From NCBI GenBank assembly GCA_050747525.1, contig JBOGOC010000110.1, positions 17,303-81,302 of the forward strand: 64,000 bases of DNA. The letters run 5' to 3'. Of the stretch, positions 6,689 through 46,277 are shown piece after piece. Both the position numbers and the translations under genes were made by a program. Position 1 is the stretch's first letter. Each line of letters begins with the position of its first letter. The notes beneath the pieces are model-generated. The model ran no database searches and was not told the origin of the DNA. It saw nothing but the letters and a program-made list of their open reading frames with translations. This DNA is from Candidatus Polarisedimenticolia bacterium. GTDB taxonomy: Bacteria; Acidobacteriota; Polarisedimenticolia; JACPZX01; DASXTC01.

Positions 6689-8527
6689 ATGGACATGCGA
6701 TGCTTTCTTATCTGCTCAGTGACCCTCGCGATCGCGTTCGGCCAGCCAATGTTCGCGCAGGGCGCTCCAGCGCTGCTCTCGTATCAGGGGCAGCTCACGA
6801 ACGCCGTCGGCGCCCCCATCACGAGTCCGACGCCGGTGCGTTTCACCCTGCTGTGGGGCGGCACGGCGAACGAGATCCCGTCCACCGGCAAGCCGGTGTA
6901 CCAGGAGGACGTCACCGTCGCACCCGACGGGGAAGGGGTGTTCCATCACCTGATCGGTGCCGGAACGCCCACCTCCGGGTGCGACGAGAACCGGGACGGC
7001 ACCGCGAACGAGCCGTGCGTCCTGACGCCTTCCGACTTTTCCGACTCGGTCACTGCGGTGTACCTCGAACTACGTGTGGATCCCGGTGGCACGAATAACG
7101 TTCTGGTGCCACGGCAGCGGACAGCAAGCGTGGGCTATGCGCTGGAAGCGGATACTCTCGATGGTCAGCATGCCACTGGGTTGGCCGACACTCTCGATTC
7201 CGCCTACCACCGCGGCGGCGCCGGGGCGGGCCGCACCATTGTCGCGGACTCGGGCGCTGTGAGCATCGCCGGCTCGGACGGTCTGACCGTGAACGGCAGC
7301 GTCGGAATCGGCACCACTACGCCCGCCAGCAAGCTACAGGTGTCGAGCGGAGCAGGTACAACGGAACTACGCATCACGAATACGGCTGCTCCAGTAGATG
7401 GTGTCGTGCGTACGGGTCTGCCCGGTGGCATCGCCAGCATGCAACTCGGCACGCTAACGTTGCATGACCTTGCCCTTGCGGCTGGCAACGCTACGCGGGT
7501 GACGATTAACGCAAGTTCCGGCAACGTCGGAATCGGCACTGCGACGCCGGGTGAAAAGCTTACCGTTGCGGGCACCATCCGCTCGACGAGCGGCGGGTAC
7601 AGATTCCCGGACGGTACAGTCCAAGGCTCGGCGGCCTCGCCCATCAATGGCATTCGTACACCACTTCAAATTGCGCTGTTGCGTTGGTACGAGTCCAACC
7701 AGGGGCCAGCAAGGTTCAGTTTTCCGGGTGGCATGTACGGAGGAAGCTCGGTCGCCTTCGACGGAGACCACATGTGGGTGGTTCTTGACCTCTTCAACAG
7801 GGTGCTCAAGTTGCGGGCCAGCGATGGGGCGCAGGTCGGCAACTTTGCGACCGGAGCCGGGGCGACCGCCGCGTCCTTTGATGGGGCCAACATCTGGGTG
7901 GCCAACTCTGACGCCGACAGCGTGACCAAGTTGCGAGCCAGCGATGGGGCATCACTCGGCACGTTCGCGGTCGGCGATGATCCGCGGGCCGTGACCTTCG
8001 ACGGTGCAAACGTCTGGGTGGGAAACTGGGCCAGCGACTCCTTGACCAAGCTTCGTGCCAGCGATGGAGTATCCCTCGGTACGTTCGCGGTCGGTGACGG
8101 CCCGGAGGGTCTATGCTTCGACGGGGCGAACATCTGGGTGACGAACTTCAATAGCGACAACGTGACGAAGATACGGGCCAGTGACGGATCGTTGCTGGGC
8201 ACATTCGGCGTCGGAAACGGTCCGCGGGGATTGGCCTTCGATGGCGCCAACATCTGGATCGCGAACTTTTTCGGTAGTGTAACGAAGCTACGTGCCAGCG
8301 ACGGAGCGCTGCTGGGAACCTTTCCGGCTGGCAGCAATCCGGCGGCCGTCGCTTTTGATGGTGCGAACATCTGGGTGGCCAACCAATCCAGCAACGTTGT
8401 AACCAAGCTGCAAGCGAGCGACGGAGCGCCGCTGGGAACCTTTCCGGCTGGGGAACTACCACAGGCGATCGCCTTCGATGGAGCCAACTTTTGGGTCGTC
8501 GGCTGGTATTACGTGTCGAAGCTGTAA
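6689..8527 (+). CDS. Secreted protein: N-terminal tail-collar-associated domain, tail-fibre-like G-rich repeats, then a 6-bladed NHL/YVTN-like beta-propeller
   Basis: AGGAGG at 6680-6685 followed by ATGs at 6689 and 6695. Signal peptide MDMRCFLICSVTLAIAFGQPMFAQG. N-domain LLSYQGQLTNAVGAPITSP is homologous to the N-termini of the tail-collar proteins at 44420 and 45384. Repeats SGNVGIGTATPGEKLTVAG. Six repeats LRASDGxxLGTFxVGxxPxxxxFDGANIWVxN. Confidence 0.7.
   Translation: MDMRCFLICSVTLAIAFGQPMFAQGAPALLSYQGQLTNAVGAPITSPTPVRFTLLWGGTANEIPSTGKPVYQEDVTVAPDGEGVFHHLIGAGTPTSGCDENRDGTANEPCVLTPSDFSDSVTAVYLELRVDPGGTNNVLVPRQRTASVGYALEADTLDGQHATGLADTLDSAYHRGGAGAGRTIVADSGAVSIAGSDGLTVNGSVGIGTTTPASKLQVSSGAGTTELRITNTAAPVDGVVRTGLPGGIASMQLGTLTLHDLALAAGNATRVTINASSGNVGIGTATPGEKLTVAGTIRSTSGGYRFPDGTVQGSAASPINGIRTPLQIALLRWYESNQGPARFSFPGGMYGGSSVAFDGDHMWVVLDLFNRVLKLRASDGAQVGNFATGAGATAASFDGANIWVANSDADSVTKLRASDGASLGTFAVGDDPRAVTFDGANVWVGNWASDSLTKLRASDGVSLGTFAVGDGPEGLCFDGANIWVTNFNSDNVTKIRASDGSLLGTFGVGNGPRGLAFDGANIWIANFFGSVTKLRASDGALLGTFPAGSNPAAVAFDGANIWVANQSSNVVTKLQASDGAPLGTFPAGELPQAIAFDGANFWVVGWYYVSKL
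7756..8515 (+). repeat. In-gene tandem DNA repeat, ~126-bp period, 6 copies, ~80% identity (encodes the NHL-type blades)
   Basis: Repeated units gtgaccaagttgcgagccagcgatggg...ttcgacgg.gcaaacatctgggtgg.caac are seen directly in the sequence. Confidence 0.7.
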
Positions 8528-21614: not shown

Positions 21615-24041
21615 CTACCGCAACGACCAAACTTCGATGGCGCCCCCGGAGACGTCTATCATGGGGCCGGTCGTGGACCCTGGGGGTGGCACAGAAATAT
21701 CGATTCTGCCAATCGTTGCAGTGCTTCCATCGGAGTAGCGCACTCTGAACTCGTAGCTCACTTCCTTCAGCAGCTCGTGCCCGCGCCACGTCGCTCGTGG
21801 ATAGCTCTCCGCGCTGGCTGTGAGCACGATCGTGGCACCTTCATTGCTCGCGAGATCCCGGAGCTCGCGCAGGCGTGCTTCGGCTGTGCGGCTTTGGAAA
21901 ACCTGGTTCACTTCACGGGGGGCATACATGATTCCTTCACGAGCCTCGTCACCGAAACCAGGGCCCCAGAGGTGTGCTCTCTCGTAGTCGGGAAGTCCGA
22001 TTTCCCGGGAGGTTGGCAGATCCACGTTGAAGTTCGGTACTCGGGGATCGCGCCGATCCCCTAGAGAAGGCCCCAGTTCTCCTTCGATTCTGAATTTGAT
22101 GGTCCCATCCGGATCCCGATGGGCCCAGATCTCCTTGATGAGACCTGTTCCGGCAGTATCCCCTGATAGGGCCACATTCGTGCTGCGTAGCCTGGGCCCT
22201 CTCCCGGAGGCTGCTGGATCGGGCGAGGCCTGTTCTCGACCGGAGGCAGCCCGCTGGCGCCGTGCCTCGGATCTGCCCCGTGGTGGTCGCTGCGTGGGCT
22301 CGCGCTCGCTCCGCCTTCCGGAGACCATCGTGTCGGCAGCTCTCGCTGACGGACCGTGCGTCGACGGATCCACCGCACCCGCGATCGGGCGCGCTTGCCG
22401 CGTCTCGGCTGCGCCTGACGCCGGGCGGTCGGTGTTCCCCTGGCTTGCTGGACGACGTGGTCGTCGCTCCCGGGAGCCGGCAGTCATCGGGGATTCCTGC
22501 CTCTCCGCCGTGCGCGACCCGGTGGAGGGCAAAGCCTCGGAAGGTGCCGCTGGCCGAGCCCCCAGCCTCGGCTCGTCCCCGACGCCAGCGGGGCGCTGGA
22601 GTCGCGCCTCCCCGGTGCCGGGAATGGGCCGATCGACCGCCCGCTCTGCCGTACGCAGGCCCTGAAGGCTCGGTCGCGGGGTTCGGCCCCTCGCTGCTCG
22701 CAGAAGAACGCGCTGAGTGAATTCAGTGCGCAGGAATCTGCGGGCGACGGGTCCCAGCATCGCGGGGAGAAGTATCGATGCCGCCAGAAGACCGACATCG
22801 GCGGTGATGTCCACCATCTCGCCGCTCGCGGGCCCCTCCGCGACACGAAGACCCTCATCGACAAGCGCGGTGCGATTCATGAGATTCCGTTGCGTCTCCG
22901 CGGACGCTGCGAATCCATACTCGACTCCGGTCTGAATCCCCAGCATCACGGCCCCGACCACTCCCGCCACGAGAGGCGATGCGAGCCCTCCTGAGACAGC
23001 CGTGACGACGAGCCCGGCTGCAAGCACCAGCACCCTGACATTCTCCAGAGCCCCCCATCTCTCTGTGAGTTCCGGGAAAAGCTCCTCAGCGAGCTCCTTC
23101 AGCGGTTCGGACTCCGCGAAGGCCGCTCCTACGTCATTTCGGAACGTAACGTCCGCCAACCTCAGCACGGGGCGCAGGTTCTCCCAGTTCTCCTGGCCTC
23201 TCAGAATCTCGTCGAGTCTCCCCCGGAAAGCAGCCACGCCTGCTCGCAGGAACACCACGATTTCATTGACGAGGCTACGGAGGTACCGGTTCCTCAGCTC
23301 GGTCGGGGCTCTCAAGACATCGTAGAGCGCCTGAGGGGTTGCGAATCTTCGGACCAGGACCAGGATTGGATGGCCCCCGAGCTCCTCGTCGAGGAGCAGG
23401 GAACGCAACTCGAAGTCATTGTTGGTCTTGACGAGGGCCACGCGTGCCAGGATGAAGTCCTGGTCCCGAGACTCTCGTGGCGACTCTCCCCAGCGGTACC
23501 AGATGAGATGGCGGACAGGGGGTTGAGCCGGCCCATAGGCCTGGGTCCCTGCATCTCGTTCGGGCGGACCGCCAGGCGGCAGCGCTGGGGTGGGTGGCAA
23601 CGCCGGCGGAGGCAACGCCGATTCCGGCACTGCGTACGGCGCGCTCGAGGTGAACACCAGCCAGCTCGCAAGGCAGCGCGCAAGGCTCCCCAGCTCCTGT
23701 TCGGCGGGCGGAGTGGCCTCACCCTCTCTTCGCCGTCCGCGGTAGCGCCAGTTGATGTGGCCCCAGAGCGAGGTCATCAAGCGAAGCTGAAACTCGCCCA
23801 TCTCGACAGCCGACGCTTGAAGCCATGCCTTGAATAGGGCGCGGTCCTCTTCGTGCCGAGGGCTTAGAAACGCCAGTCCCCCTGGCCCCGCGTCAGGGTA
23901 TGTCCGCCGAAACTGATCGAAGGCCCTCGGGATCGTACCGTGAGGATCCGAGGACACACCGCCTCGCGCCCTCCACAAGAGACGATAGGAACGGTCAGCG
24001 TGGTGTAGCCTCCGCAGGACTTCTCTGGGCTCGTCTGACAT
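21615..24041 (-). CDS. Hypothetical 808-aa protein: N-terminal domain, two TM helices, a disordered R/P-rich linker and a C-terminal ~190-aa toxin-like domain
   Basis: Long ORF with coding-like composition. TM segments VLVLAAGLVVTAVSGGLASPLVAGVVGAVMLGI and LLAASILLPAMLG. Low-complexity linker RQESPMTAGSRERRPRRPASQGNTDRP... C-terminal block LPDYERAHLWGPGFGDEAREGIMYAPREVNQVF...IVLTASAESYPRATWRGHELLKEVSYEFRV. No confident family assignment. Confidence 0.55.
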   Translation of the reverse strand: MSDEPREVLRRLHHADRSYRLLWRARGGVSSDPHGTIPRAFDQFRRTYPDAGPGGLAFLSPRHEEDRALFKAWLQASAVEMGEFQLRLMTSLWGHINWRYRGRRREGEATPPAEQELGSLARCLASWLVFTSSAPYAVPESALPPPALPPTPALPPGGPPERDAGTQAYGPAQPPVRHLIWYRWGESPRESRDQDFILARVALVKTNNDFELRSLLLDEELGGHPILVLVRRFATPQALYDVLRAPTELRNRYLRSLVNEIVVFLRAGVAAFRGRLDEILRGQENWENLRPVLRLADVTFRNDVGAAFAESEPLKELAEELFPELTERWGALENVRVLVLAAGLVVTAVSGGLASPLVAGVVGAVMLGIQTGVEYGFAASAETQRNLMNRTALVDEGLRVAEGPASGEMVDITADVGLLAASILLPAMLGPVARRFLRTEFTQRVLLRAARGRTPRPSLQGLRTAERAVDRPIPGTGEARLQRPAGVGDEPRLGARPAAPSEALPSTGSRTAERQESPMTAGSRERRPRRPASQGNTDRPASGAAETRQARPIAGAVDPSTHGPSARAADTMVSGRRSEREPTQRPPRGRSEARRQRAASGREQASPDPAASGRGPRLRSTNVALSGDTAGTGLIKEIWAHRDPDGTIKFRIEGELGPSLGDRRDPRVPNFNVDLPTSREIGLPDYERAHLWGPGFGDEAREGIMYAPREVNQVFQSRTAEARLRELRDLASNEGATIVLTASAESYPRATWRGHELLKEVSYEFRVRYSDGSTATIGRIDISVPPPGSTTGPMIDVSGGAIEVWSLR

Positions 24042-29057: not shown

Positions 29058-32000
29058 GTGTCCCATCCCGCGCCAGGTCGTCCAGCAGCAGCCCGTTCAC
29101 TCGGACTCATCCTTCTCGCAATCGGTGCCCTCCTCGGCGGAAATGCGAGCGCCGGAGACCAGGCAGCCGGCTCCCGGCCCGAGTATTTCCTCAAGTTCGC
29201 CGGCTCGCTGCCTGAGTCCGACGGCAGTCTCTTTTCGGGAAGCCGCACGTTCGTCTTCGAGCTCTTCGGGCGCGAGCGCGGAGAGGCGCCGATCTGGTCC
29301 GAGCAGCAGGAGATCGAGGTCCGTGATGGGCGGTACTCGACCCTGCTGGGAGTCAGCGCGCCCCTCACGGCGCCTCCGGGAGACGGGTACGCGCTCGCGG
29401 TCCGTGTCGAGGGAGTGGTCGAGCCGCTCGAGGTGCACGAGATCTCGATCGCGGTGCCCGCCGGCAGGGACGGGGTCGCTCGAACCGCGGGCACCCCGAT
29501 CTACAGGCTCCTCCCCTCGACGACGGGCCGGCGCGGCCGAGGCCGGATGGCGGCGATGGCCACCGCAGCCGCGGTGTCCGAGCCGGCGGACCAGGCCATG
29601 GCCCAGGCCGGCGCTGCCGCCTCGGGGCCCAGACTCCTCTTCGTCGGTGTGGAAGTGGAGGAGACATCGGGCAACACGGACGGTTCTCTGGAGCCCGGCG
29701 AAACGGTCAACCTCAAGGTCAAGCTCTACAACGACGGCAATGAGCTGGCCTCGTCCATCTTCGGGACTCTCGACTATCTCGGGACGAATCCCGATGTGAC
29801 GATCCTCGACAAGACCGCTTCGTGGCCGAACCTGGCGGCACGCGGAGCCCCGGCGCTGACCGACTCCCCCCACTTCCAGGTCCAGCTCGCAGGCACTCTG
29901 GCCTGCGGGACGGTGCTGCCATTCCGCGTGGAGGTGACGACAGGAACGGGGGGGATCTTCGATCTCGACTTCTCGCTCAAGGCCGGCCAGAGACTCGACT
30001 ATGACATGCTCCACGACGCGATCCGCCGATTCAACGAGCAGGAGGCGAACCTCTGGGGGGCCGATCCGGGGGACAAGCTCGGCTCGAGCGTGGCGTGGGG
30101 GGACATCAACGGAGACGGGCGCGCGGATCTGATTTTGGGGGCCAGCGAAGGCGACTCTGTAGGAAACGCCCGCGGCTTCGCTGGGGAGGTCTACCTCATT
30201 TACGGGAGGTCCAGCCAGTGGACCGAAACGGATCTCCTCAGCCCGGGGACCGGCGTGGCGCGATTCTGGGGAGCGGATCCAACTGATGTCCTCGGGATCT
30301 CTGTCGCCAGCGGTGACCTGAACGGCGACGGCTTCGACGACCTCATTTTGGGAGCAGAACTCGCCGACGGTCAGGGAAACGCGCGCGCTAACGCTGGTGA
30401 GGTCTACCTCATCTACGGGAGGTCCAGCGAGTGGACCGACACGGATCTCCTCTCCCCGGCGCCCGGCGTGGCGCGATTCTGGGGGGCGGACTCCCTGGAT
30501 TTGCTGGGATCTTCGGTGGCCAGCGGTGACGTGAACGGCGACGGGTTCGACGACCTCATTTTGGGGGCCAAAGAAAGCGACTCTTCAGGAAACGCCCGCA
30601 ACGCCGCTGGGGAGGTCTACCTCATCTACGGGAGGTCCACCCAGTGGATCGACACGAATCTCCTCACCCCCCCGTCCGGCGTGGCGCGATTCTGGGGCGC
30701 GGAACCCTTTGACACGTTGGGCTCCAGTGTGGCCAGCGGAGACGTGAACGGCGACGGGTTCGACGACCTCATTCTGGGGGCGGTCTTCGGCGACTCCGTG
30801 GGGAACACGCGTTTCAACGCTGGGGAGGTCTATGTCATCTACGGGAGGTCCAGCCAGTGGACCGACACGGATCTCCTCACCCCTCCGTCCGGCGTGGCGC
30901 GATTCTGGGGGGTGGATGAAGCAGATCGCCTCGGGATCTCTGTCACCAGCGGTGACGTGGACGGCGACGGCTTCGACGACCTGATCCTGGGAGCGGACGA
31001 CGGCGACTCCGTGGGGAACACGCGCTTCCTCGCTGGGGAGGTCTACCTCATTTACGGGAGGTCCAGCCAATGGACCGACACGGATCTCCTCAGCCCGGCG
31101 ACGGGCGTGGCGCGATTCTGGGGGGCGGATAATGCCGATCACCTCGGGTTCTCTGTCACCAGCGGTGACGTGGACGGCGACGGCTTCGACGACCTGATCC
31201 TGGGAGCGTTTAACAGCTCATCCGCAGGGAGCACGCGCCTCAGTGCCGGAGCGGTTTACCTAATCTACGGGAGGTCCAGCCCGTGGACCGACACGGATCT
31301 GCTCACCCCGGCGCCCGACGTGTCGCGATTCTGGGGGGCGGATACATTCGATCACCTCGGGTTCTCTGTCGGCAGCGGGGATGTGGACGGCGACGGCTTC
31401 GACGACGTGATCCTGGGAGCGGTTTCCGGCGCTTCGGCGGGAAACGCGCGCCCCGATGCCGGAGAAGTGTACCTCTGGTACGGGAAGCCCGTGGACACGC
31501 ACTACGCCCGCTCCGACACCTACTCGTTCATCGACGCCAGCGTCGGGGCCGGTCTTCCTGCCCTTGCCTGCGATGACTGCTCCACGACAGTGCCGATAGG
31601 ATTCTCGTTTCCCTTCCATGGCGAGGAGTATTCGACCATCCACGTGTCGAGCAATGGCCTGATCTCCTTCGCGCCCATCAGCGACCTCGCCTCCGCGAAC
31701 CCGATCTGCATCCCGGCGCGCAATCCCTCGAATCTCCTGGTCGCCCCCTTCTGGGACGATCTGAACCCGGCCGCCGGAGGAGCAGGCAGCGGCGTCTTCA
31801 CCCTCCTCCAGGGGACCGCCCCGAACCGCCGGCTCACGATCGAATGGAAGGATGTCCCGCACTATCCGGCGACGGGCGGAGCGACGTTCGAGGTGACGCT
31901 CTTCGAGTCGTCGGGACAGATCCTCGTCCAGTACGGCGACACGATTTTCGGAAACAGCGCCTTCGACGGCGGCGCCGCTGCGGTCGCGGGGCTCGAGAAC

Positions 32001-33125
32001 GGCAAGGGGGCCCAGGGCACGGCCTACTCCTGCTTCTCCAATAACCTTCTGACCGGCTCGACGGCCGTGCGGTTCATCCCGACGACTCCCCTGATCGAAA
32101 CGCGGCCGGAGACCGCCACGCCCCTGTGGAGCACGACCGGTCTGTGGCATCTCTCGACAGGGGCCTGCGAGCCGGACCAGCACACGGGAAGCACGGGCTG
32201 GTACTACGGTCAGGATGCCACCTGCGACTACAACACCGCATCCGTCAACAGCGGATCCTTGAGGGCGCCGACGGTCCCTGATTTTCCCGCCGACGCCCGC
32301 CTGGCGTACTGGTACAGGAGGCAGGCCGAAGCGGGGACGTTCGATCTCTCCAAAGTCCAGCTCAGCACCACCGGGACGGGCGGCTCGTATGGGGACATTC
32401 AGCAGACAACCGATTCCACCAATGTCTGGCTCTACGCCGGTGTCACCAACATCTTCTCTGCGCCGGCGGCGACGGTCGATCTGAGGTTCTTCTTCGACAC
32501 CGTGGACAACGCCGTCAACAACACGCTCGGCTGGATGGTGGACGACGTCCAGCTCGTCGGCTGCGACGCCACCGGCGCACCCTCGATGGCCGCCGCGGCG
32601 ACCGCCTTCGCGCAGCCCGACACGTTCTGCGAGGGGGACTCGGGGGTGCTCGACGCTCTGGGCTCCTTCTGCGGAGATTCGGGATCACCCTCGGGCTATC
32701 AGTGGCGGCGCGATGGACTGGACCTGGCGGGAGCGACGAGTCTGATGCACGCGATCCCGCCGACCGAACCCGCGGGTGTCTACGACTATTCCGTCGCCAT
32801 CTCGTGTCCCGGTGGAGCCATGGATGAATCAGACGCGCAGCAGGTGACGATCGTGGCGCCTCCGGAGGCAGTGGGCCCGACCCTCGAGCTCCTCGCGTTA
32901 CCGAACCCTGCTGCCCCGGCGTCGCTGAAATTCACCTGGACGGACGTGACGGGGGCGGATGACTACGTGGTGTTGCAGGATACGACGAACGGTCCCTTCA
33001 CGACGGTGACGGGAACCGCCTCGAGCGGGTCGCCGGGTCTGACCGTTCCGCTTCCGCCGGGATCGCTCGTCTACTTCCTCGTCGCCGGACGCAACGCCGT
33101 CTGCGGGGAGGGGCCGAAGCAATGA
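29058..33125 (+). CDS. Secreted 1355-aa protein with 7-8 tandem FG-GAP repeats followed by beta-rich C-terminal domains
   Basis: GTG 29058 follows GAGGAGG. Signal peptide MSHPAPGRPAAARSLGLILLAIGALLGGNASA. Repeats RFWGADxxDxLGxSVxSGDVNGDGFDDLILGAxxxDSxGNxRxxAGEVYLIYGRSSQWTDTDLL (7-8 copies). Confidence 0.8.
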   Translation: MSHPAPGRPAAARSLGLILLAIGALLGGNASAGDQAAGSRPEYFLKFAGSLPESDGSLFSGSRTFVFELFGRERGEAPIWSEQQEIEVRDGRYSTLLGVSAPLTAPPGDGYALAVRVEGVVEPLEVHEISIAVPAGRDGVARTAGTPIYRLLPSTTGRRGRGRMAAMATAAAVSEPADQAMAQAGAAASGPRLLFVGVEVEETSGNTDGSLEPGETVNLKVKLYNDGNELASSIFGTLDYLGTNPDVTILDKTASWPNLAARGAPALTDSPHFQVQLAGTLACGTVLPFRVEVTTGTGGIFDLDFSLKAGQRLDYDMLHDAIRRFNEQEANLWGADPGDKLGSSVAWGDINGDGRADLILGASEGDSVGNARGFAGEVYLIYGRSSQWTETDLLSPGTGVARFWGADPTDVLGISVASGDLNGDGFDDLILGAELADGQGNARANAGEVYLIYGRSSEWTDTDLLSPAPGVARFWGADSLDLLGSSVASGDVNGDGFDDLILGAKESDSSGNARNAAGEVYLIYGRSTQWIDTNLLTPPSGVARFWGAEPFDTLGSSVASGDVNGDGFDDLILGAVFGDSVGNTRFNAGEVYVIYGRSSQWTDTDLLTPPSGVARFWGVDEADRLGISVTSGDVDGDGFDDLILGADDGDSVGNTRFLAGEVYLIYGRSSQWTDTDLLSPATGVARFWGADNADHLGFSVTSGDVDGDGFDDLILGAFNSSSAGSTRLSAGAVYLIYGRSSPWTDTDLLTPAPDVSRFWGADTFDHLGFSVGSGDVDGDGFDDVILGAVSGASAGNARPDAGEVYLWYGKPVDTHYARSDTYSFIDASVGAGLPALACDDCSTTVPIGFSFPFHGEEYSTIHVSSNGLISFAPISDLASANPICIPARNPSNLLVAPFWDDLNPAAGGAGSGVFTLLQGTAPNRRLTIEWKDVPHYPATGGATFEVTLFESSGQILVQYGDTIFGNSAFDGGAAAVAGLENGKGAQGTAYSCFSNNLLTGSTAVRFIPTTPLIETRPETATPLWSTTGLWHLSTGACEPDQHTGSTGWYYGQDATCDYNTASVNSGSLRAPTVPDFPADARLAYWYRRQAEAGTFDLSKVQLSTTGTGGSYGDIQQTTDSTNVWLYAGVTNIFSAPAATVDLRFFFDTVDNAVNNTLGWMVDDVQLVGCDATGAPSMAAAATAFAQPDTFCEGDSGVLDALGSFCGDSGSPSGYQWRRDGLDLAGATSLMHAIPPTEPAGVYDYSVAISCPGGAMDESDAQQVTIVAPPEAVGPTLELLALPNPAAPASLKFTWTDVTGADDYVVLQDTTNGPFTTVTGTASSGSPGLTVPLPPGSLVYFLVAGRNAVCGEGPKQ
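30045..31490 (+). repeat. In-gene tandem DNA repeat, 186-bp period, ~8 copies with high nucleotide identity (FG-GAP units)
   Basis: Near-identical blocks ...gaggtctacctcatctacgggaggtccagccagtggaccgacacggatctcctca... recur every 186 nt. Confidence 0.8.
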
Positions 33126-39207: not shown

Positions 39208-42200
39208 GTGAGAACGTCGAGAGCGATCACCACGATCCCGGTTCGAGGTTTGCAGAGGCCGCTGCGCGGTGCAGTGGCGCAATGCCTGGCACTCATCGTG
39301 GGCCTTCTGGCATGGTCCGCCACGCCGGCCCAGCCGATCACCCCTCCTGAATGGATCCCGGAACTGACCGGCTGGACAGGCGACGTCAATGCCAACGGCG
39401 TGGCCGACTCCATCGACAACGCGGACCCGAACATCTCGGTGTTCGACGGCATCGTCCTGGATCTCAACGCCGCCCCGTCTCCGACCGATCTCGCCGACTT
39501 CGAGGCGATCGGAAACGTGGCGTACGTCGCGCAACATCTGTCCATCGTGGTGCTCCATGGGGTCCCGCGGTCCTGGATTCCCAATCTCGCTGCGCACCCT
39601 CGCGTTGCGATGGTCGAGCAGCCGGTCATGCAGACGACGCTCGACGTCGGCGCTCGCGCGGTCCGATCCCTTCCCAGCGCCACCTTCTCGCCTCAGACGG
39701 CCGCCGAGATAGGCATCGATGGGACCGGCGTCACCATCGTGATCATGGACACCGGGGTCGACAACGGCGGCGGACCGGGCATCACGCACAGCGCGCTTCC
39801 CGCCGCGCGCAACGCGGCCCTCCCCGAAGGGGGGTTCGATGGATGCGCGGCCCCCCCGGCCTACGGCGATCCCGATGACCTGACGTTTCACGGAACCCAC
39901 GTCGCCGGCATCGCCGTGGGAGGGGCCTACGTCGACGTGGGCTCGGGGCTGACCCTGAAAGGAGTCGCCTCAGGTGCCCACTACGCGGACGTGAAGGTGT
40001 GCTGCGGGCTGTTCTGCCCTGCCGTCGCCATCGCCGCGGGCTTCGACGCCATCCTCGACAAGAAAGTGCCCTGGGACATCCGGGTCGTCAACATGAGCTG
40101 GGGCGGACTCTGCGGCATCACCAACGGCCTCGACGCGTTCAGCATGTTCGCCAACGCGCTCGCCGACGCGGGGATCGTGCCGGTGGCCTCCGCGGGCAAT
40201 TCGGGGTTCGGGGGGCTCTGCTCCCCCTGTGCAGGGGACAAGGTCGTGTGCGTCGCGAGCGACAACGACGTGGGAACCGTCCCCCTGACGGACGATGTGA
40301 TCAGCGCCTTTTCCAGCCGCGGGCCGCGCCCGAGCGACGGCGACGGGGACCCGCTGGACGAGCTGAAGCCCGACCTCGCCGCGCCAGGGAGCCTCATCCT
40401 GGCTCCGGCGAACAACACCGTGGCCGGCTCGATGACCCTCAGCGGCACCTCCATGGCTAGCCCCCACGTGGCGGGCGGCGCCGCGCTGGCGATCCAGGGG
40501 CGGCCCGGGCTGCCGCCGAGCGCGATCAAGACGGTCCTCAAGCAGACCGCGGCGGACATGGCGGACATGGATGGAGGCTCCTTTCCAGGACTGGATCCTC
40601 TCTACGACACGGCGTTCGGCGAGGGGATCCTCAACGCTTTCGCGGCCGCCTCGTGTGCAAGCGATGCGGAATGCCAGGACGGCGACGCCTGCAATGGGGC
40701 CGAGGTCTGCGTGGCGGGTGTCTGCCAGCCGGGCTCCCCGCCCGACTGCGACGACGGATCGATCTGCACGGTCGACTCGTGCAGCCCGCTCTCGGGATGC
40801 CTCAACATTCCAGCGGCCGACGCGGAGATCCCCTCCGGGCTGGACAGGACCTGCAGCACGGCCGACGACAACGTCACGCTGTTCGGCCCCGACGGATTCT
40901 GCAACACGGCCGACGACACGTGCGGAGATGGCGTCGTCGCGGGAGACGTCTGTCCCGGGCACGTGGATCCGGCGCAGGCGGATCACGACGGCGACGCGGT
41001 CGGCGACATGTGCGACCCGACGGCCTGCCTGACCGCTTCTTCAGGCGTGTTCCGCTCCCGTGGCTCGATGACGCAGGCCCGAGAAGGCCATGCCGCCGCC
41101 TTGATGTCCGACGGAAGGGTGCTGGTCGCCGGGGGAGGCTTCACTCCCCCCTCAGAGGTCTACTCGCCGGCGACCCGCTCCTTCTCCGCGACCAGCGCGA
41201 TGTCCGTGGCGCCGAACCGCACCGGCCACACGATGACGCCGCTCACGAACGGCCGCGTCCTGGTGGCGGCGGGCTGGAACCCGTTCGGCGGCGGGTCGCT
41301 GAACTCCGCCCAGATCTACGACCCGCTCACGGGGTTCTTCACGGCAGCCGGCAACCTGGGGACCGCGCGCAACAGCCACACCGCCACCCGCCTCTCTTCG
41401 GGTCAGGTGCTCGTGGCCTCGGGAGCGACCACGATCGGCGGGCGAACCGCCACGGCCGAGCTCTACGAGCCGGCTTCCGGAATCTTCTCTCCGACGGGAA
41501 GCCTGCTCGAGGCACGGGAGGGCCACGTCGCGGCCTTGCTGGCCGACGGACGTGTCCTGGTGGCTTCGGGCCGCGGCGACTCGGGCGTCCTCGCCTCCGC
41601 CGAGATCTTCAACCCCGCCACCGGGACCTGGTCGTTCACCGACTCCATGAACGTCGGCCGCGAGTTTGCCCAGGCCACCGCGCTGGCGGACGGCCGCGTG
41701 CTGGTCACCGGCGGCCGAAGGGCGGACGCCACGATTCTCTCCTCCGCGGAGATCTACGATCCGGCCACGGGGCATTTCTCCCTGGTGGGCCCGATGGCCG
41801 GTGCCCGCATGCATTACACCATGACGATGATCCCGGGAGGCCGCGTGCTCATCGCTGGAGGCGCGTCCGCCCTCGGCGGGGTGCCGACGCCGACCAGCCC
41901 CTCCGCCGAGCTGTTCGACCCCGCCACGGATTCCTTCACCACCGTCGCTTCCATGCTGACTCCGCGGATGCTCCACATCGCCTCGCCGCTGGCGAATGGA
42001 CACGTCCTGATTGCGGGCGGGAACCAGATCCTGTCGTCGTCGGAGCAGTTCGTTCCGGGCGAGCAGGCCGTGGTCTCGGTGCCGGATGGCCTGAGCCTGC
42101 TCATCAACGACTCCACGGCGCAAGTCCCCGTGCTGACGTCGGACCTCACGGGACTGGGGATCGTCTCGGCCGACTTCACCCTCTCGTTCAATCCGTCGGT

Positions 42201-43476
42201 GGTGCAGCCCAGCGGTGTTGTCACCACGGGGCCGGTGTCTGCCGGCTGCTCGATCGGCTTCACTCCCTCGTTCAACTCGGTCTCGGTGTCGATTTCCTGT
42301 CCCGGTCCGATGTCGGGGTCGGGCGATCTCGCCGTCGTGAGCTTCGATTTCGCCGGCGGGTTCAACGAGATCACGCCGCTCCTGCTCACTTCGGCCTCGC
42401 TGTCTCCTGGGCTCTCTCCAGCCTGCTCTGAGAACGGCTCGCTCCAGCTCGTGCAGAACGCCGATCTCACGGGCATGGTCCGCTACTATCGCGACGCGGC
42501 CCTGGGCACGGAGCCCGGCTCGATACCCGTTGCTCTCGTCTCGATCCGGTTGACGGGCACCGGTCCTTCCGTGCCCGCCACCACGTCGACCCTGGCGGCG
42601 GGGACCTACACGCTTGCCGGCAAGCGGCTGGGCGAAACTTACGCCGTGACGCCCGCCAAGACGGCCGACTTCCAGAGCGGGGTGACCAGCTACGACGCGG
42701 CGCTCAACGCGCAGGACGTCGTAGGGCTCATCACCCTGTCCCCCGCCCAGCTCCTGGCCGCGGACGTCTCGGGCAACGGCCGCAACACGGCGTTCGACTC
42801 GGCGCTCATCGCCGAGATGGCCGTCGGGAGCCTGGGGCGATTCCCCGTGGCCACCATGATGACCAGCGACTGGTTCGCTCTGCCCGTTCCTGCCCCGGCG
42901 CTGAACCAGATGACGGTCGCTCCTTCGCCGTCCACGGGAGTCGCCGGAGCCATCGGCTACGCGCCGCTGGTTCAGGACGTCGCGGGACAGGACTTCCTCG
43001 CGGGACTGTTCGGCGACGTGTCGGGAAACTGGCCTTCCGGCGCACCCGGGTTCACCTCGGGCGGCACGGCGAGCCTGCAGGGGCCGTCCACGCCGCCACG
43101 GTTCGTCCTGGGCGACCTGGAGGGAGCGACCGGATCGATCGTACAGGTGCACCTGGCGGCCGAGGGTATCGAGGGGGCGATCGCGGTCGACCTGGACCTG
43201 CGCTTCAAGGAGAGCGTGCTGCGTCCCATCGCCGTGGCGCCCGGGACTGCGGCGGCCGGGTTCACGCTCAACGCCAACCTCGCGACGCCGGGCAGGGCGC
43301 GGATCGGGCTCTTCAGCGCCTCGCCTCTGAAGGCGCCAGGGACCCTGGCCGTGATCTCCTTCGAGATCGTCGGCCGTCCCGGCTCGCAGAGCGTCCTCAA
43401 GCTCAGCGGCCTGGCCGACGAAGGCCGCATTCCGGTGTCCTCATCGACCGCGCACGCCAGGGTGTCCCGCCCATGA
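39208..43476 (+). CDS. Secreted S8 subtilisin-like protease fused to kelch/galactose-oxidase-like beta-propeller repeats and a C-terminal cohesin-like domain
   Basis: GTG 39208 follows GAGGTGAGG. Signal peptide ...AQCLALIVGLLAWSATPAQP. Subtilase motifs DTGVD, HGTHVAGIAVGG, GTSMASPHVAGGAALA. Kelch-like units GRVLVAGG / GRVLIAGG (6 copies). C-terminal domain similar to the product of the next gene. Confidence 0.8.
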   Translation: MRTSRAITTIPVRGLQRPLRGAVAQCLALIVGLLAWSATPAQPITPPEWIPELTGWTGDVNANGVADSIDNADPNISVFDGIVLDLNAAPSPTDLADFEAIGNVAYVAQHLSIVVLHGVPRSWIPNLAAHPRVAMVEQPVMQTTLDVGARAVRSLPSATFSPQTAAEIGIDGTGVTIVIMDTGVDNGGGPGITHSALPAARNAALPEGGFDGCAAPPAYGDPDDLTFHGTHVAGIAVGGAYVDVGSGLTLKGVASGAHYADVKVCCGLFCPAVAIAAGFDAILDKKVPWDIRVVNMSWGGLCGITNGLDAFSMFANALADAGIVPVASAGNSGFGGLCSPCAGDKVVCVASDNDVGTVPLTDDVISAFSSRGPRPSDGDGDPLDELKPDLAAPGSLILAPANNTVAGSMTLSGTSMASPHVAGGAALAIQGRPGLPPSAIKTVLKQTAADMADMDGGSFPGLDPLYDTAFGEGILNAFAAASCASDAECQDGDACNGAEVCVAGVCQPGSPPDCDDGSICTVDSCSPLSGCLNIPAADAEIPSGLDRTCSTADDNVTLFGPDGFCNTADDTCGDGVVAGDVCPGHVDPAQADHDGDAVGDMCDPTACLTASSGVFRSRGSMTQAREGHAAALMSDGRVLVAGGGFTPPSEVYSPATRSFSATSAMSVAPNRTGHTMTPLTNGRVLVAAGWNPFGGGSLNSAQIYDPLTGFFTAAGNLGTARNSHTATRLSSGQVLVASGATTIGGRTATAELYEPASGIFSPTGSLLEAREGHVAALLADGRVLVASGRGDSGVLASAEIFNPATGTWSFTDSMNVGREFAQATALADGRVLVTGGRRADATILSSAEIYDPATGHFSLVGPMAGARMHYTMTMIPGGRVLIAGGASALGGVPTPTSPSAELFDPATDSFTTVASMLTPRMLHIASPLANGHVLIAGGNQILSSSEQFVPGEQAVVSVPDGLSLLINDSTAQVPVLTSDLTGLGIVSADFTLSFNPSVVQPSGVVTTGPVSAGCSIGFTPSFNSVSVSISCPGPMSGSGDLAVVSFDFAGGFNEITPLLLTSASLSPGLSPACSENGSLQLVQNADLTGMVRYYRDAALGTEPGSIPVALVSIRLTGTGPSVPATTSTLAAGTYTLAGKRLGETYAVTPAKTADFQSGVTSYDAALNAQDVVGLITLSPAQLLAADVSGNGRNTAFDSALIAEMAVGSLGRFPVATMMTSDWFALPVPAPALNQMTVAPSPSTGVAGAIGYAPLVQDVAGQDFLAGLFGDVSGNWPSGAPGFTSGGTASLQGPSTPPRFVLGDLEGATGSIVQVHLAAEGIEGAIAVDLDLRFKESVLRPIAVAPGTAAAGFTLNANLATPGRARIGLFSASPLKAPGTLAVISFEIVGRPGSQSVLKLSGLADEGRIPVSSSTAHARVSRP

Positions 43477-43514
43477 CCGGGCCGGTCGTGATCCGTGTCA
43501 TCAGGAGGCTTGCC

Positions 43515-44357
43515 ATGAAGCTCTTCGCTCGACTGAACCGGGACGCCGCCGCGGCACTGATCGGCGGCGCCCTGCTCCTCGCCTCGCAGACGCCCGCCTG
43601 GGCGGCGGCGCTCAGCCTGCCGCCGGACGCCGGCGGCCGAGGCGGCGTGACGGTGAGCGTTCCTCTGCGAGTGGACGACGCGGCGGGGATCCGCTCGGCC
43701 GATGTCCGCGTGGAGTTCTCCCCCGCGATCGCCGAAGCGGTCGCCGTCTCACTCACCCCCCTGACCTCGAGCTTCCAGATCGCCGTGAACCTGAACACAC
43801 CAGGCGTGGTGATCGTCTCGATGTTCGGGACGACGCCTCTCTCGGGCACCGGCGATCTCCTCCGGATCGACTTCCAGGTCGAGGGGGGGCTGGGGCAGTC
43901 CACGTCCCTGGACCTGGTCCTCGGCGAGCTCAACGAAGGGGCCATCGCCTCCACGCTCCAGGATGGGATCTTCACGGTGCTCCCCACCTATCTGCTCTCA
44001 ATGAAGAGCGTCAACTCGGGAGGAGGGGAGGCGGCCTCGGCGTCCTGGCGCGCCGGTGGCTCGATGGGACAGGAGTCGGTCGTGGAGGCCTCGGCGGCCT
44101 TCGGCCACGTGGTGCAGTCGGGCTTCTGGAGCTTCGCCGGGACCGGCGTGGTTCCCGTGGTGCTGTCCGTGGGCGCGACCGTCCTGAGCTGGTCGGGGAA
44201 CGATCCGCCTTACTCCATCTACCGGTCCGGCGACTGCAGTGACGTCGGGTCGTCCCTGCTCACGGTGACTCCTGCCAGCAGCTTCTCCGACCCCGCCGTT
44301 CCTGCTCCGGGGCAGGTCTTCTGCTATCAGGTCGAGCCCGCGCCGCCGGGCATGTGA
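43515..44357 (+). CDS. Secreted cohesin-like domain protein
   Basis: AGGAGG 9 nt before ATG 43515. Signal peptide MKLFARLNRDAAAALIGGALLLASQTPAWAAA. The segment VSVPLRVDDAAGIRSADVRVEFSPAIAEAVAV...LLRIDFQV resembles the C-terminal domain of the upstream subtilase. Confidence 0.6.
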   Translation: MKLFARLNRDAAAALIGGALLLASQTPAWAAALSLPPDAGGRGGVTVSVPLRVDDAAGIRSADVRVEFSPAIAEAVAVSLTPLTSSFQIAVNLNTPGVVIVSMFGTTPLSGTGDLLRIDFQVEGGLGQSTSLDLVLGELNEGAIASTLQDGIFTVLPTYLLSMKSVNSGGGEAASASWRAGGSMGQESVVEASAAFGHVVQSGFWSFAGTGVVPVVLSVGATVLSWSGNDPPYSIYRSGDCSDVGSSLLTVTPASSFSDPAVPAPGQVFCYQVEPAPPGM

Positions 44358-44419
44358 GGTCGATGGGAATGCACGGCCACGATTCCAGTCTGGTGAAGGT
44401 CGACAACAGGAGGTCGCAC

Positions 44420-45331
44420 ATGAAGAAGACTCTGGGAACCGGAACCGCCCTGCTCCTCGCCTGCGTGATTCCGGCAGCCCTGGGCGCCCATGCCCTCGCG
44501 GCAATCCCGCGGACGATCAACTATCAGGGACGGCTTACCACCAACGATGCGCTGCCGTCCCCGGTCAATGGAAACCTGCCGATGCAGTTCAGCCTCTGGG
44601 ATGACGTGGTGGGCGGCACGCTCCTCTGGTCCGAGAGCTGGCCCTCGGTCCCCGTGAGCGAAGGGATCTTCAACCTGGTGCTCGGATCGCTGACGCCGCT
44701 CCCCTCATCTCTCTTCCAGTCTGGCGACCGCCGCTGGCTCGAGCTGAGCGTCAACGGAGAGGTGCTTTCGCCTCGGCAGGAGCTCACTTCCACCGGGTGG
44801 GCCTTCCAGGCGGAGGGGACGAACACACTGGGCGGCCTGCCGGCCTCGAGCTGGCAGCGGCGCGTCACGGGGACCTGCCCCTCCGGATCGAGCATCCAGG
44901 CCGTCGGGGATCAGGGGACCGTGACCTGCGAGGTCGACGACACGGGGGCCGGCGTTCCCTCGGGAGCGATCATGTACTTCAACAATTCCACGTGCCCTCC
45001 CGGGTGGAGCCCCCTCGTCGCGGCGCAGGGACGGTACCTGGTGGGCGTTGTCCCCGGCGGGACGCTGCTGGGAACCCCTACAGGAGTGCATTCCGCCCTG
45101 TTCGACCGGGAGAACCGCCCGGTAGGTGCCCACTCCCACGGCATCACCGACCCGGGGCACAGGCATGGCTACGAAGCGGCGGTCCCGACGTCGACCGGCT
45201 CCGGCGACTCGCAGGCCGGGTACGAACACCGCAACACGGACCTCGCGGTCACGAACGTCACCATCAACAGCACCGGCCCGGCCGGGACGAACGCCCCCTA
45301 CATCCAGCTCCTCGTCTGCCAGAAGAACTGA
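44420..45331 (+). CDS. Secreted phage tail-collar domain protein (MdpB-like), paralog 1
   Basis: AGGAGG before ATG. Signal peptide MKKTLGTGTALLLACVIPAALGAHALA. N-domain IPRTINYQGRLTTNDALPSPVNGNLPMQFSLWDD. C-terminal tail-collar signature GAIMYFNNSTCPPGWSPL...LFDRENRPVG...GTNAPYIQLLVCQKN. Confidence 0.75.
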   Translation: MKKTLGTGTALLLACVIPAALGAHALAAIPRTINYQGRLTTNDALPSPVNGNLPMQFSLWDDVVGGTLLWSESWPSVPVSEGIFNLVLGSLTPLPSSLFQSGDRRWLELSVNGEVLSPRQELTSTGWAFQAEGTNTLGGLPASSWQRRVTGTCPSGSSIQAVGDQGTVTCEVDDTGAGVPSGAIMYFNNSTCPPGWSPLVAAQGRYLVGVVPGGTLLGTPTGVHSALFDRENRPVGAHSHGITDPGHRHGYEAAVPTSTGSGDSQAGYEHRNTDLAVTNVTINSTGPAGTNAPYIQLLVCQKN

Positions 45332-45383
45332 GACGGTCAAGGGGATGGCGAACGCGGATCATGGTCGAGCACAGGAGGAGGTC

Positions 45384-46277
45384 ATGAGAGTTCTGTGTGG
45401 AGTTCTGCTGGCGATTTCGGCGGCTCTGTGCGGGCAGGCGTTCGCGGCCGTCCCTTCCACGATTCACTACCAGGGTCGCCTCCTGCTGAACGATGCGATC
45501 CCTTCTCCCTTCAATGGGACGGTCCCGATCCAGGCGGTCCTCTGGGACGACGCGACGGCCGGCACGCAGCTCTGGACCGAGACGTGGGCCTCGGTCACCG
45601 TAACTGACGGCGTCTTCCACCTGGTGCTCGGCTCTTTGTCCCCAATTCCGGCTCTCGTCTTTCAGTCGACCGAGCCGGTGTGGCTGGAGATGATCGTCGA
45701 CGGCGAGGTGATTTCTCCGCGCCGCGAGCTCACTTCTTCCATGTGGTCCTTCAGGGCCGAAGCGTCCGACATGCTGGGCGGGCTCGCCTCCTCGTCATGG
45801 CAGCTCCGCGTCTCCGGCGCCTGTCCGCCGGGCTCGAGCATCCAGACCGTGGGGAGCGGCGGCGCGGTGACCTGCGAGACGGACGACACCGGGGCGCCCG
45901 TCCCCGCCGGCGCCGTGACCTTCGTCAACCTGCCGGCCTGTCCGCCCGGATGGAGCCTTCTGGCCGCCGGGCAGGGTCACTACGTGGTCGGCCTGTCGCC
46001 GGGCGGCACGCTGTTGGGCACGCCGATGGGGACCTACAGTCCCCTGACCGACCGGGAGAACCGGCCCGTGGGAGGCCACACTCACACCAAAAACGATCCA
46101 GGGCACAGGCATGGCTACGAAGCGGCCGTCCCGACGTCGACCTCGGGCGGCTCATCGAAGGCCGGGTACCAGCATCGCGATACTGATCTCGCCGTCACCG
46201 GGATCTCGGTCAACAGCACGGGTCCGGTCGGGACCAACGCCCCCTACGTCCAGCTCCTCCTTTGCCAGAAGGACTGA
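45384..46277 (+). CDS. Secreted phage tail-collar domain protein, paralog 2 (tandem duplicate)
   Basis: AGGAGGAGG before ATG 45384. MRVLCGVLLAISAALCGQAFA. The protein has the same architecture as 44420..45331, with an estimated ~65% identity. Confidence 0.75.
   Translation: MRVLCGVLLAISAALCGQAFAAVPSTIHYQGRLLLNDAIPSPFNGTVPIQAVLWDDATAGTQLWTETWASVTVTDGVFHLVLGSLSPIPALVFQSTEPVWLEMIVDGEVISPRRELTSSMWSFRAEASDMLGGLASSSWQLRVSGACPPGSSIQTVGSGGAVTCETDDTGAPVPAGAVTFVNLPACPPGWSLLAAGQGHYVVGLSPGGTLLGTPMGTYSPLTDRENRPVGGHTHTKNDPGHRHGYEAAVPTSTSGGSSKAGYQHRDTDLAVTGISVNSTGPVGTNAPYVQLLLCQKD

Follow-up and report, generated by a model that had tools for sequence, protein, structure and literature searches.

We report on two adjacent genes, A and B, in a 64-kb stretch of DNA from Candidatus Polarisedimenticolia bacterium (contig JBOGOC010000110.1; the whole stretch is hereafter the "window", and positions are counted within it). 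Overall, the evidence favors reading both products as chromosomally encoded, Sec-exported, short fiber-type adhesins built on the plan of the mosaic adhesive trimers (MATs) of Bdellovibrio, i.e., as shaft-less and probably trimeric proteins that end in a phage-type tip, and we regard this as the probable explanation of the pair. Each protein consists, in order, of a signal peptide, an N-terminal domain of ~110 amino acids (aa; the "N-domain"), a hairpin module with two cysteines, and a C-terminal domain of ~125 aa (the "tip"). The products are identical to the NCBI entries 'hypothetical protein ACREAA_19885' (Candidatus Polarisedimenticolia bacterium) for A and 'hypothetical protein' ACREAA_19890 for B.

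MATs, introduced in 2024 as the prey-recognition adhesins long sought in Bdellovibrio, are surface-exposed trimeric chimeric fibers (Caulton et al. 2024, Nat Microbiol, PMC10769870). All 21 have a beta-rich, conserved domain about 130 aa long directly after the signal peptide; the PDB contains no structural homologue of this domain, whose presumed role is to bind an element of the producer's surface, while the C-terminal tips are swapped between members (PMC10769870). Outside Bdellovibrio, MATs have been listed for Omnitrophica, Myxococcales, Bacteroidota, the PVC group, and others (PMC10769870, Supplementary Table S3). A and B share with them the signal peptide followed by the N-domain, a variable and often phage-like tip, the presence of several paralogs per genome, and a chromosomal rather than prophage-borne location. 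They differ in size (~300 aa vs 417–1915 aa for described MATs, those of Bdellovibrio being about 600–1100 aa), in having no counterpart of the long intertwined trimeric beta-prism or beta-helix shaft, and in a tip that is not among the listed TNF-like, S74, FGE, beta-helix, collagen-like, beta-sandwich, invasin, and C-type lectin types. They come from an acidobacterium (Polarisedimenticolia) for which no predatory lifestyle is known. Tip type, ~300-aa size, and phylum are all new when set against the published list.

Architecture and selection regime of the A/B pair

The start codons of both genes are backed by strong Shine–Dalgarno sites (Table 1), and the two same-strand open reading frames (ORFs) encode proteins that are 64% identical across 293 aa (E 1e-142, pairwise protein comparison), i.e., tandem paralogs, as a preliminary description of this DNA had put it. 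That description had also proposed export through Sec, and cleavage signals for signal peptidase I (SPase I) can indeed be read at both N-termini: MKKTLGTGTALLLACVIPAALGAHALA followed by the first mature alanine in A (…HALA/A), and MRVLCGVLLAISAALCGQAFA in B (residues 1–21; …QAFA/A). Conservation in family alignments starts directly after the cleavage point of A. A lipoprotein reading of A, based on the string 'LLAC', was rejected, as the hydrophobic core runs past the cysteine and an AxA site then follows. No recognizable anchor motif (lipobox, LPXTG, or PEP-CTERM) occurs in the sequence of A or B.

Table 1 Features of the window considered here (positions within the window; residues refer to the encoded protein)
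Feature	Position	Strand	Remarks
Gene A	44420..45331	+	ORF, 303 aa; putative secreted mini-fiber protein
Shine–Dalgarno site of A, AGGAGG	44408..44413	+	6 nucleotides (nt) ahead of ATG; read from sequence
A Sec (SPase I) signal peptide, residues 1–27	44420..44500	+	cleavage motif ALA/A; read from sequence
A MAT-type N-domain, residues 28–135	44501..44824	+	NF053851 29.8 bits, E 4.7e-7; family profile E 3.6e-45
A two-Cys beta-hairpin module, residues 143–176 (WQRRVTGTCPSGSSIQAVGDQGTVTCEVDDTG)	44846..44947	+	separate BLAST match
A C-terminal tip, residues 179–303	44954..45328	+	collar-like first half, then two HxH pairs
Gene B	45384..46277	+	ORF, 297 aa; paralog, four-part architecture as in A
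Shine–Dalgarno site of B, AGGAGGAGG (incl. AGGAGG)	45373..45381	+	ahead of ATG; read from sequence
B two-Cys module, residues 137–170	45792..45893	+	same module as in A
Protein C, 612 aa	6689..8527	+	signal peptide, N-domain, fiber-type repeats, propeller tip
Fourth, divergent N-domain carrier	29058..33125	+	family profile E 1.1e-9
Secreted subtilase, 1422 aa, with Kelch repeats and cohesin domain	39208..43476	+	Pfam scan
Cohesin-domain secreted protein	43473..44357	+	Pfam Cohesin E 5.9e-7
Ntox4 polymorphic-toxin protein, 808 aa, domain at C-terminal end	21615..24041	-	Pfam E 1.8e-20

Local alignments to 120 database homologues split A into three independently occurring modules, and B follows the same plan (N-domain at residues 22–129, tip at 173–297). 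The sequence motifs on which the preliminary description relied (YQGRL, LWDD, LVLGS, CPPGW, ENRPVG, and NAPYIQLLVCQK) are all present; its N-domain was recognized correctly and drawn too short, at ~80 aa, and the separate cysteine module had been overlooked. In an AlphaFold2 model of A built on 103 sequences, the N-domain forms a beta-sandwich with a predicted local distance difference test score (pLDDT) of 96–98, the cysteine module contains a hairpin at residues 157–172, and the tip reaches pLDDT 66–97. Searches with whole sequences were empty: A had no match in a PDB sequence search, and A and B had no match at all in Pfam and none in PHROGs.

The cysteine module spans ~34 residues in A, and its consensus, W/YxQRRVTGTCxxGxxIxxIxxDGxVTCE, covers ~30. 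It occurs once in A and in B and as tandem repeats elsewhere (P0020, P0039, and P0025), with about seven copies at a ~60-aa period in P0020; it matched no Pfam family.

A comparison of non-synonymous to synonymous substitution rates between the paralogs, which the preliminary description had suggested, gave a dN/dS of 0.30 overall (dS = 0.91), indicating that the pair evolves under purifying rather than diversifying selection. Diversifying selection at any one part of the protein, including the tip, was rejected, with dN/dS within 0.22–0.39 in every segment.

The N-domain family and the C-terminal tip

The N-domains of A, B, and protein C, a third secreted protein of the window, matched a single NCBIfam family, NF053851 'Bdello_MAT_N' (E 4.7e-7, 4.2e-5, and 1.8e-5, respectively), and Pfam has no model for this domain. 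Across the family, NF053851 was matched by 37 of 45 N-domains (best E 1.4e-12), with nothing else of note. We therefore regard the N-domain as a probable distant relative of the Bdellovibrio MAT N-domain. The sharing of this domain between A and protein C, proposed earlier, is borne out by pairwise comparison (27% identity, E 4e-9) and by the family profile (E 1.3e-21), and in A, B, and C alike the signal peptide is followed directly by the conserved domain, as in the MAT superfamily.

Of 1.84 billion cluster representatives (50% identity), a profile built from these three N-domains retrieved 40,856 at E ≤ 1e-3, of which 12,752 also passed E ≤ 1e-10. For the 143 best of these matches, the median start of the N-domain is residue 21 and total length spans 122–1542 aa; of 123 proteins checked, 120 have a hydrophobic leader just upstream of this domain. 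The A-type tip, by contrast, was present in only 2 of the 144 top proteins, and the family is therefore mosaic, with exchangeable C-terminal tips as in the MAT superfamily. Other C-terminal partners include PF07484, S74, collagen, Laminin_G_3, and DUF4215. In this very large mosaic family, the N-domain is thus the conserved end next to the signal peptide. Some proteins (P0214, P0215, P0216, and P0219) carry three tandem copies of the N-domain.

The tip of A ends in GTNAPYIQLLVCQKN, and its family signature is CPxGW...ENRPVGxHxH...GTNAPY[IVL]QLLVCQK. Invariant or near-invariant residues are C192, P193, W196, G204, R233, G236, H238, H240, H247, and H249, followed by T290-N-A-P-Y294, L297/L298, C300, and K302. 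Of the four histidines, H238 and H240 are invariant across homologues and the other two, H247 and H249, nearly so, which makes two HxH pairs; Cys192 and Cys300 are both invariant and form the one cysteine pair of the tip.

The preliminary description had assigned this region to the tail-collar (MdpB-like) domain. Membership of A and B in the Pfam Collar family, PF07484, was rejected, with no Pfam match at E ≤ 1, and deeper comparisons point to a probable resemblance to fiber-type domains. In another protein, P0100, the same N-domain is joined to a true PF07484 domain, and among the relatives of P0100 PF07484 was matched in all 10 tested and scored above threshold in 5 of the 10, several being annotated 'microcystin-dependent protein'. 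A hidden Markov model (HMM) of the C-domain family did not significantly match the true Collar domain of P0100. Aligned as profiles with hhalign, however, the C-domain family and this PF07484-positive family gave a probability of 94.1% (E 1.3e-7), over the first ~60 columns only and requiring a ~28-residue deletion. In this alignment, PxGA[IV]xxF…CPxGW…GRYxVG…HxH of the tip is matched to the Collar core, of which ~28 residues are absent from A and B. By eye, the C-terminal ending N-x-P-[PY]-x-x-L-x-x-x-x-K is analogous to that of Collar proteins (PF07484; T4 gp12-type; MdpB/COG4675).

The second half of the tip may resemble phage long tail fibers. The best PDB sequence match of the C-domain profile was the long tail fiber of cyanophage A-1(L) (8kec, E 0.014), where it falls on HxHxxxDxGHxH repeats, and three members of the tip family weakly matched Pfam Phage_fiber. 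HxH pairs and a position at the C-terminal end of fiber-like proteins are shared with the tips of T4 gp37 (2xgf), Bizionia prophage C24 (6ov6), A-1(L), and Pseudomonas phage Pa223 (9nxk). In the trimeric tip of T4 gp37, such pairs coordinate iron along the three-fold axis (as summarized in PMC11705849). The A/B tip is much shorter than these phage tips (~125 aa with two HxH pairs, vs seven iron sites reported in gp37), and it differs from them in being fused to a Sec-exported cellular protein, in its invariant cysteine pair, and in the signature GTNAPY[IVL]QLLVCQK. From these profile and motif comparisons, we conclude that the tip is probably phage-fiber-like, with a collar-like N-terminal half and a gp37-like HxH part, while not being a PF07484 member by that model's own threshold.

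We then surveyed one genome per GTDB species for the signature GTNAPY[IVL][QI]L, which yielded 85 confirmed loci. Among the best 80 of these, tip-bearing organisms include Elusimicrobiota (many loci), Patescibacteria, Saccharibacteria, Omnitrophota, DPANN archaea, Myxococcota, Bacteriovoracia, Solirubrobacterales, Vicinamibacterales, and Thermoanaerobaculia, along with two isolates, Caulobacter sp. 17J65-9 and Ferrimonas balearica. Many of these lineages are epibionts or predators of other cells (Patescibacteria, DPANN archaea, Omnitrophota, Elusimicrobiota, Bacteriovoracia, and Myxococcota). In most of the 99 ORFs from the genome and IMG/VR loci, the domain ends at most one residue from the stop codon and is therefore a terminal tip. 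N-domain and tip occur together in 16 of the 99 (252–1217 aa), so that the full MAT-like layout exists with an A-type tip, and proteins that join the N-domain, a long shaft, and the same tip are found elsewhere at 484–1217 aa.

Two architectures bear on the oligomeric state. In a Bacteriovoracia protein (L021), a signal peptide and the N-domain are followed by a collagen triple helix (PF01391, E 1.4e-13), then by a beta-rich domain, and last by an A-type tip; the protein P0047 joins collagen to an A-type tip. Since collagen obliges a trimer, this indirectly supports a trimeric state of N-domain and tip. The N-domain of L021 scores 35.5 bits against NF053851 (profile positions 3–144 of 162), which is likewise below the 60-bit cutoff of that family. 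In proteins from candidate phyla radiation (CPR) bacteria, an N-terminal membrane anchor and fiber motifs of the GNxGIGTxTP type precede the tip.

Tip genes also recur in tandem arrays, with six ORFs of ~250 aa in L056 and pairs in L023 and L080, which makes the A/B pair of the window one small instance of a repeated pattern. On a Vicinamibacterales chromosome (OZ244976.1, 4.245–4.313 Mb), five loci (L067, L069–L072) hold six tip-bearing ORFs within ~70 kb. A 292-aa full-length homologue, P0008, lies on contig L101 beside small unannotated genes, a weak DUF7289 match, and a gene for a T2SSF platform protein; this run of genes may represent a cluster for a type IV pilus or a Tad-like system. 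Caulton et al. (PMC10769870) brought up a potential interplay of MATs with type IV pili.

Genomic context and relation to phages

The window holds four N-domain carriers with three different C-terminal ends. In protein C, the N-domain (nt 6764–7183) has two insertions and is followed by two GxVGIGTxTP fiber-type repeats (about nt 7244–7600) and a beta-propeller tip (about nt 7661–8524). The repeats agree with the preliminary description, whereas the NHL propeller given there does not: protein C has no Pfam match, hence none to NHL, and the propeller is of YVTN type (PDB 1l0q, E 3.7e-31; PknD 1rwi, E 7e-10), with 27.3 bits against TIGR02276, whose cutoff is 27.85 bits. In the fourth carrier, the N-domain (about nt 29190–29414) stands right after the signal peptide and precedes FG-GAP repeats that form an integrin-like propeller tip.

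Immediately upstream of A lie the genes of a secreted subtilase and a cohesin-domain protein. The start of the cohesin gene overlaps the stop of the subtilase gene by 4 nt, and its own stop lies 62 nt before A. The subtilase may be the first gene of a transcription unit shared with the cohesin gene and A/B; a promoter and terminator scan of the locus yielded nothing above chance. By eye, the subtilase also contains a dockerin-like stretch, DVSGNGRNTAFDSALIAEMAVG. The order cohesin gene, A-orthologue, B-orthologue is conserved in related samples (SRR7186522 and SRR7186497), where two short contigs show it: L103 carries the C-terminus of the cohesin protein, the A-orthologue (82% identical), and the start of the B-orthologue, and L104 the end of the A-orthologue followed by the B-orthologue (78% identical). 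The duplication therefore predates the split from this relative, and both copies have been retained. According to Pfam, the window's large ORFs encode a TPR-CHAT protein, a Ser/Thr kinase, an Ntox4 toxin protein, and a beta-lactamase in addition to giant secreted proteins, which comprise a metalloprotease-like FG-GAP/TSP3 protein, two subtilases, FG-GAP proteins, and Kelch and galactose-oxidase-like proteins. The Ntox4 protein (Table 1) points to contact-dependent or secreted antagonism encoded near the fiber genes.

No phage structural, integrase, or lysis family was found in the Pfam scan of the window's large ORFs, and tblastn of A against 50,697 GenBank phage genomes gave no match. A prophage reading of A/B was rejected on these two results. 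The genes thus lie outside any phage structural block in the 64-kb window, as the preliminary description had stated.

Among predicted viral sequences in IMG/VR, the tip occurs on 7 contigs, and on one of them (L081) it lies between a major head protein, ~2.2 kb upstream, and tail proteins downstream. The peptide NYQGRLTD was found on 13 IMG/VR contigs, with the N-domain confirmed by profile on ten of them (nine full-length); these proteins have signal peptides, and an Ig-like insertion breaks up their N-domain. Both N-domain and tip are therefore shared with viruses, if rarely. Two of the predicted viral contigs encode Sec-signal N-domain proteins (L088, 3617..5449; L089, 11155..12735), which is unexpected in a phage structural region: both contigs have genes for a head-maturation protease and a major head protein, joined by a portal gene in L089 and by a tape-measure gene in L088. 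The L089 protein scores 37.7 bits against NF053851.

A probable shaft-less MAT-type adhesin and its alternatives

If A and B are MAT-type adhesins, SPase I would remove the leader so that the mature protein begins with the beta-sandwich N-domain, the cell-proximal module by which the protein is presumably held on the surface of the producer. The small hairpin, stapled by a disulfide, would serve as the neck, and the C-terminal ~125 aa would form a phage tail-fiber-type tip, probably trimeric, in which the HxH pairs may line the three-fold axis and bind a metal ion while a Cys192–Cys300 disulfide staples the domain. The ligand of the tip would lie on another cell or particle and would most likely be a surface glycan or protein. 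With no long shaft, the tip would be positioned close to the cell surface or envelope of the producer. The pair itself would stem from an old tandem duplication, of which purifying selection has kept both copies.

Several observations weigh against this explanation. A and B are devoid of a trimeric beta-prism or beta-helix shaft, and only ~43 residues separate N-domain and tip. The NF053851 scores of A, B, and C (29.8, 23.4, and 24.6 bits) are far under the curated 60-bit cutoff, which places all three outside the Bdellovibrio MAT subfamily, and a homologue search seeded with a Bacteriovoracia N-domain and aimed at true Bdellovibrio MATs returned no matches. For the tip, PF07484 (Collar; gathering score 24 bits) was matched at E ≤ 1 by none of 44 C-domain homologues, as by neither A nor B, and PHROGs gave no match. 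In the most variable region of the family (residues 251–285), A and B are 71% identical, so that they are not obviously different in specificity. For A and B, the architecture, the homologies, the lack of a prophage, the mode of selection, and the conserved synteny are shown by the data, and surface retention, trimeric state, metal binding, disulfides, ligand, adhesin function, and co-transcription with the upstream cohesin and protease genes are inferred.

Three other explanations were considered. Small shaft-less proteins of only ~300 aa that bear no anchor motif might be freely released, as lectin-like or bacteriocin-like ('MdpB-like') factors that act at a distance and are not attached to the producer; such a reading could draw on the 'microcystin-dependent protein' annotation of their nearest Pfam-positive relatives and on the fact that the binding partner of the MAT N-domain is not known even in Bdellovibrio. 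We nevertheless consider it unlikely, as no immunity-like or toxin domain occurs in or adjoining A/B, tens of thousands of mosaic proteins share the N-domain as their conserved end, a pattern that fits a module for presentation or anchoring, and the family is surface-located in Bdellovibrio (PMC10769870). The preliminary description had offered 'domesticated adhesin or bacteriocin-like surface proteins': the adhesin half is in line with what is essentially the MAT family, NF053851 being matched by all three proteins, whereas the bacteriocin-like half found no specific support.

The genes upstream suggest a different role, in which A and B would be subunits of a cohesin-based surface complex, docking, by the N-domain or some other surface, on the upstream cohesin modules and thereby joining a targeting tip to the giant subtilase. 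Protease gene, cohesin gene, A, and B are tightly spaced on one strand with no terminator-like site between them, and the order of cohesin protein, A, and B is kept in a relative with ~80% identical proteins. This synteny is known from one close relative only, however, and no dockerin was detected in A or B with Pfam or NCBIfam. Other family members stand in unrelated contexts, e.g., P0008 near T2SSF and small genes, and protein C and the 29058..33125 protein have no adjacent cohesin gene, so we judge participation in such a complex quite improbable. Decay of a prophage or tailocin that left its tail-fiber genes behind would account for the phage-fiber-like tip and for its presence on seven IMG/VR contigs, once beside major-head and tail genes. 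Against such an origin as remnants, both genes have Sec signal peptides, strong Shine–Dalgarno sites, and the imprint of purifying selection, both paralogs are retained in a relative, the phage genome search was empty, and the neighbors are secreted proteases, a cohesin protein, a beta-lactamase, a kinase, and FG-GAP proteins, with no phage families among the large ORFs of the window; we thus hold it to be very improbable indeed.

Taken together, the reading of A and B as short MAT-type adhesins extends the known MAT family and does not overturn current views of it. The N-domain leads a very large and largely unannotated family (about 40,000 clusters and no Pfam model) that reaches the Acidobacteriota and has a few members on phage contigs, and the shaft-less ~300-aa A/B proteins offer a convenient minimal object for determining the structure of this domain and for finding its partner. 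As for the tip, this compact and probably phage-type receptor-binding domain is widespread in lineages that have been little studied, CPR bacteria and DPANN archaea among them. It is conceivable, if speculative, that the A-type C-domain constitutes, across Bacteria and Archaea, an undescribed, phage-derived family of receptor-binding tips, without a Pfam model so far, that serves cell-to-cell attachment. If so, the fiber genes would be the mark of a contact-dependent predatory or epibiotic lifestyle in this Polarisedimenticolia bacterium, which the several MAT-like fibers, giant secreted proteases, and Ntox4 toxin of the window would fit.

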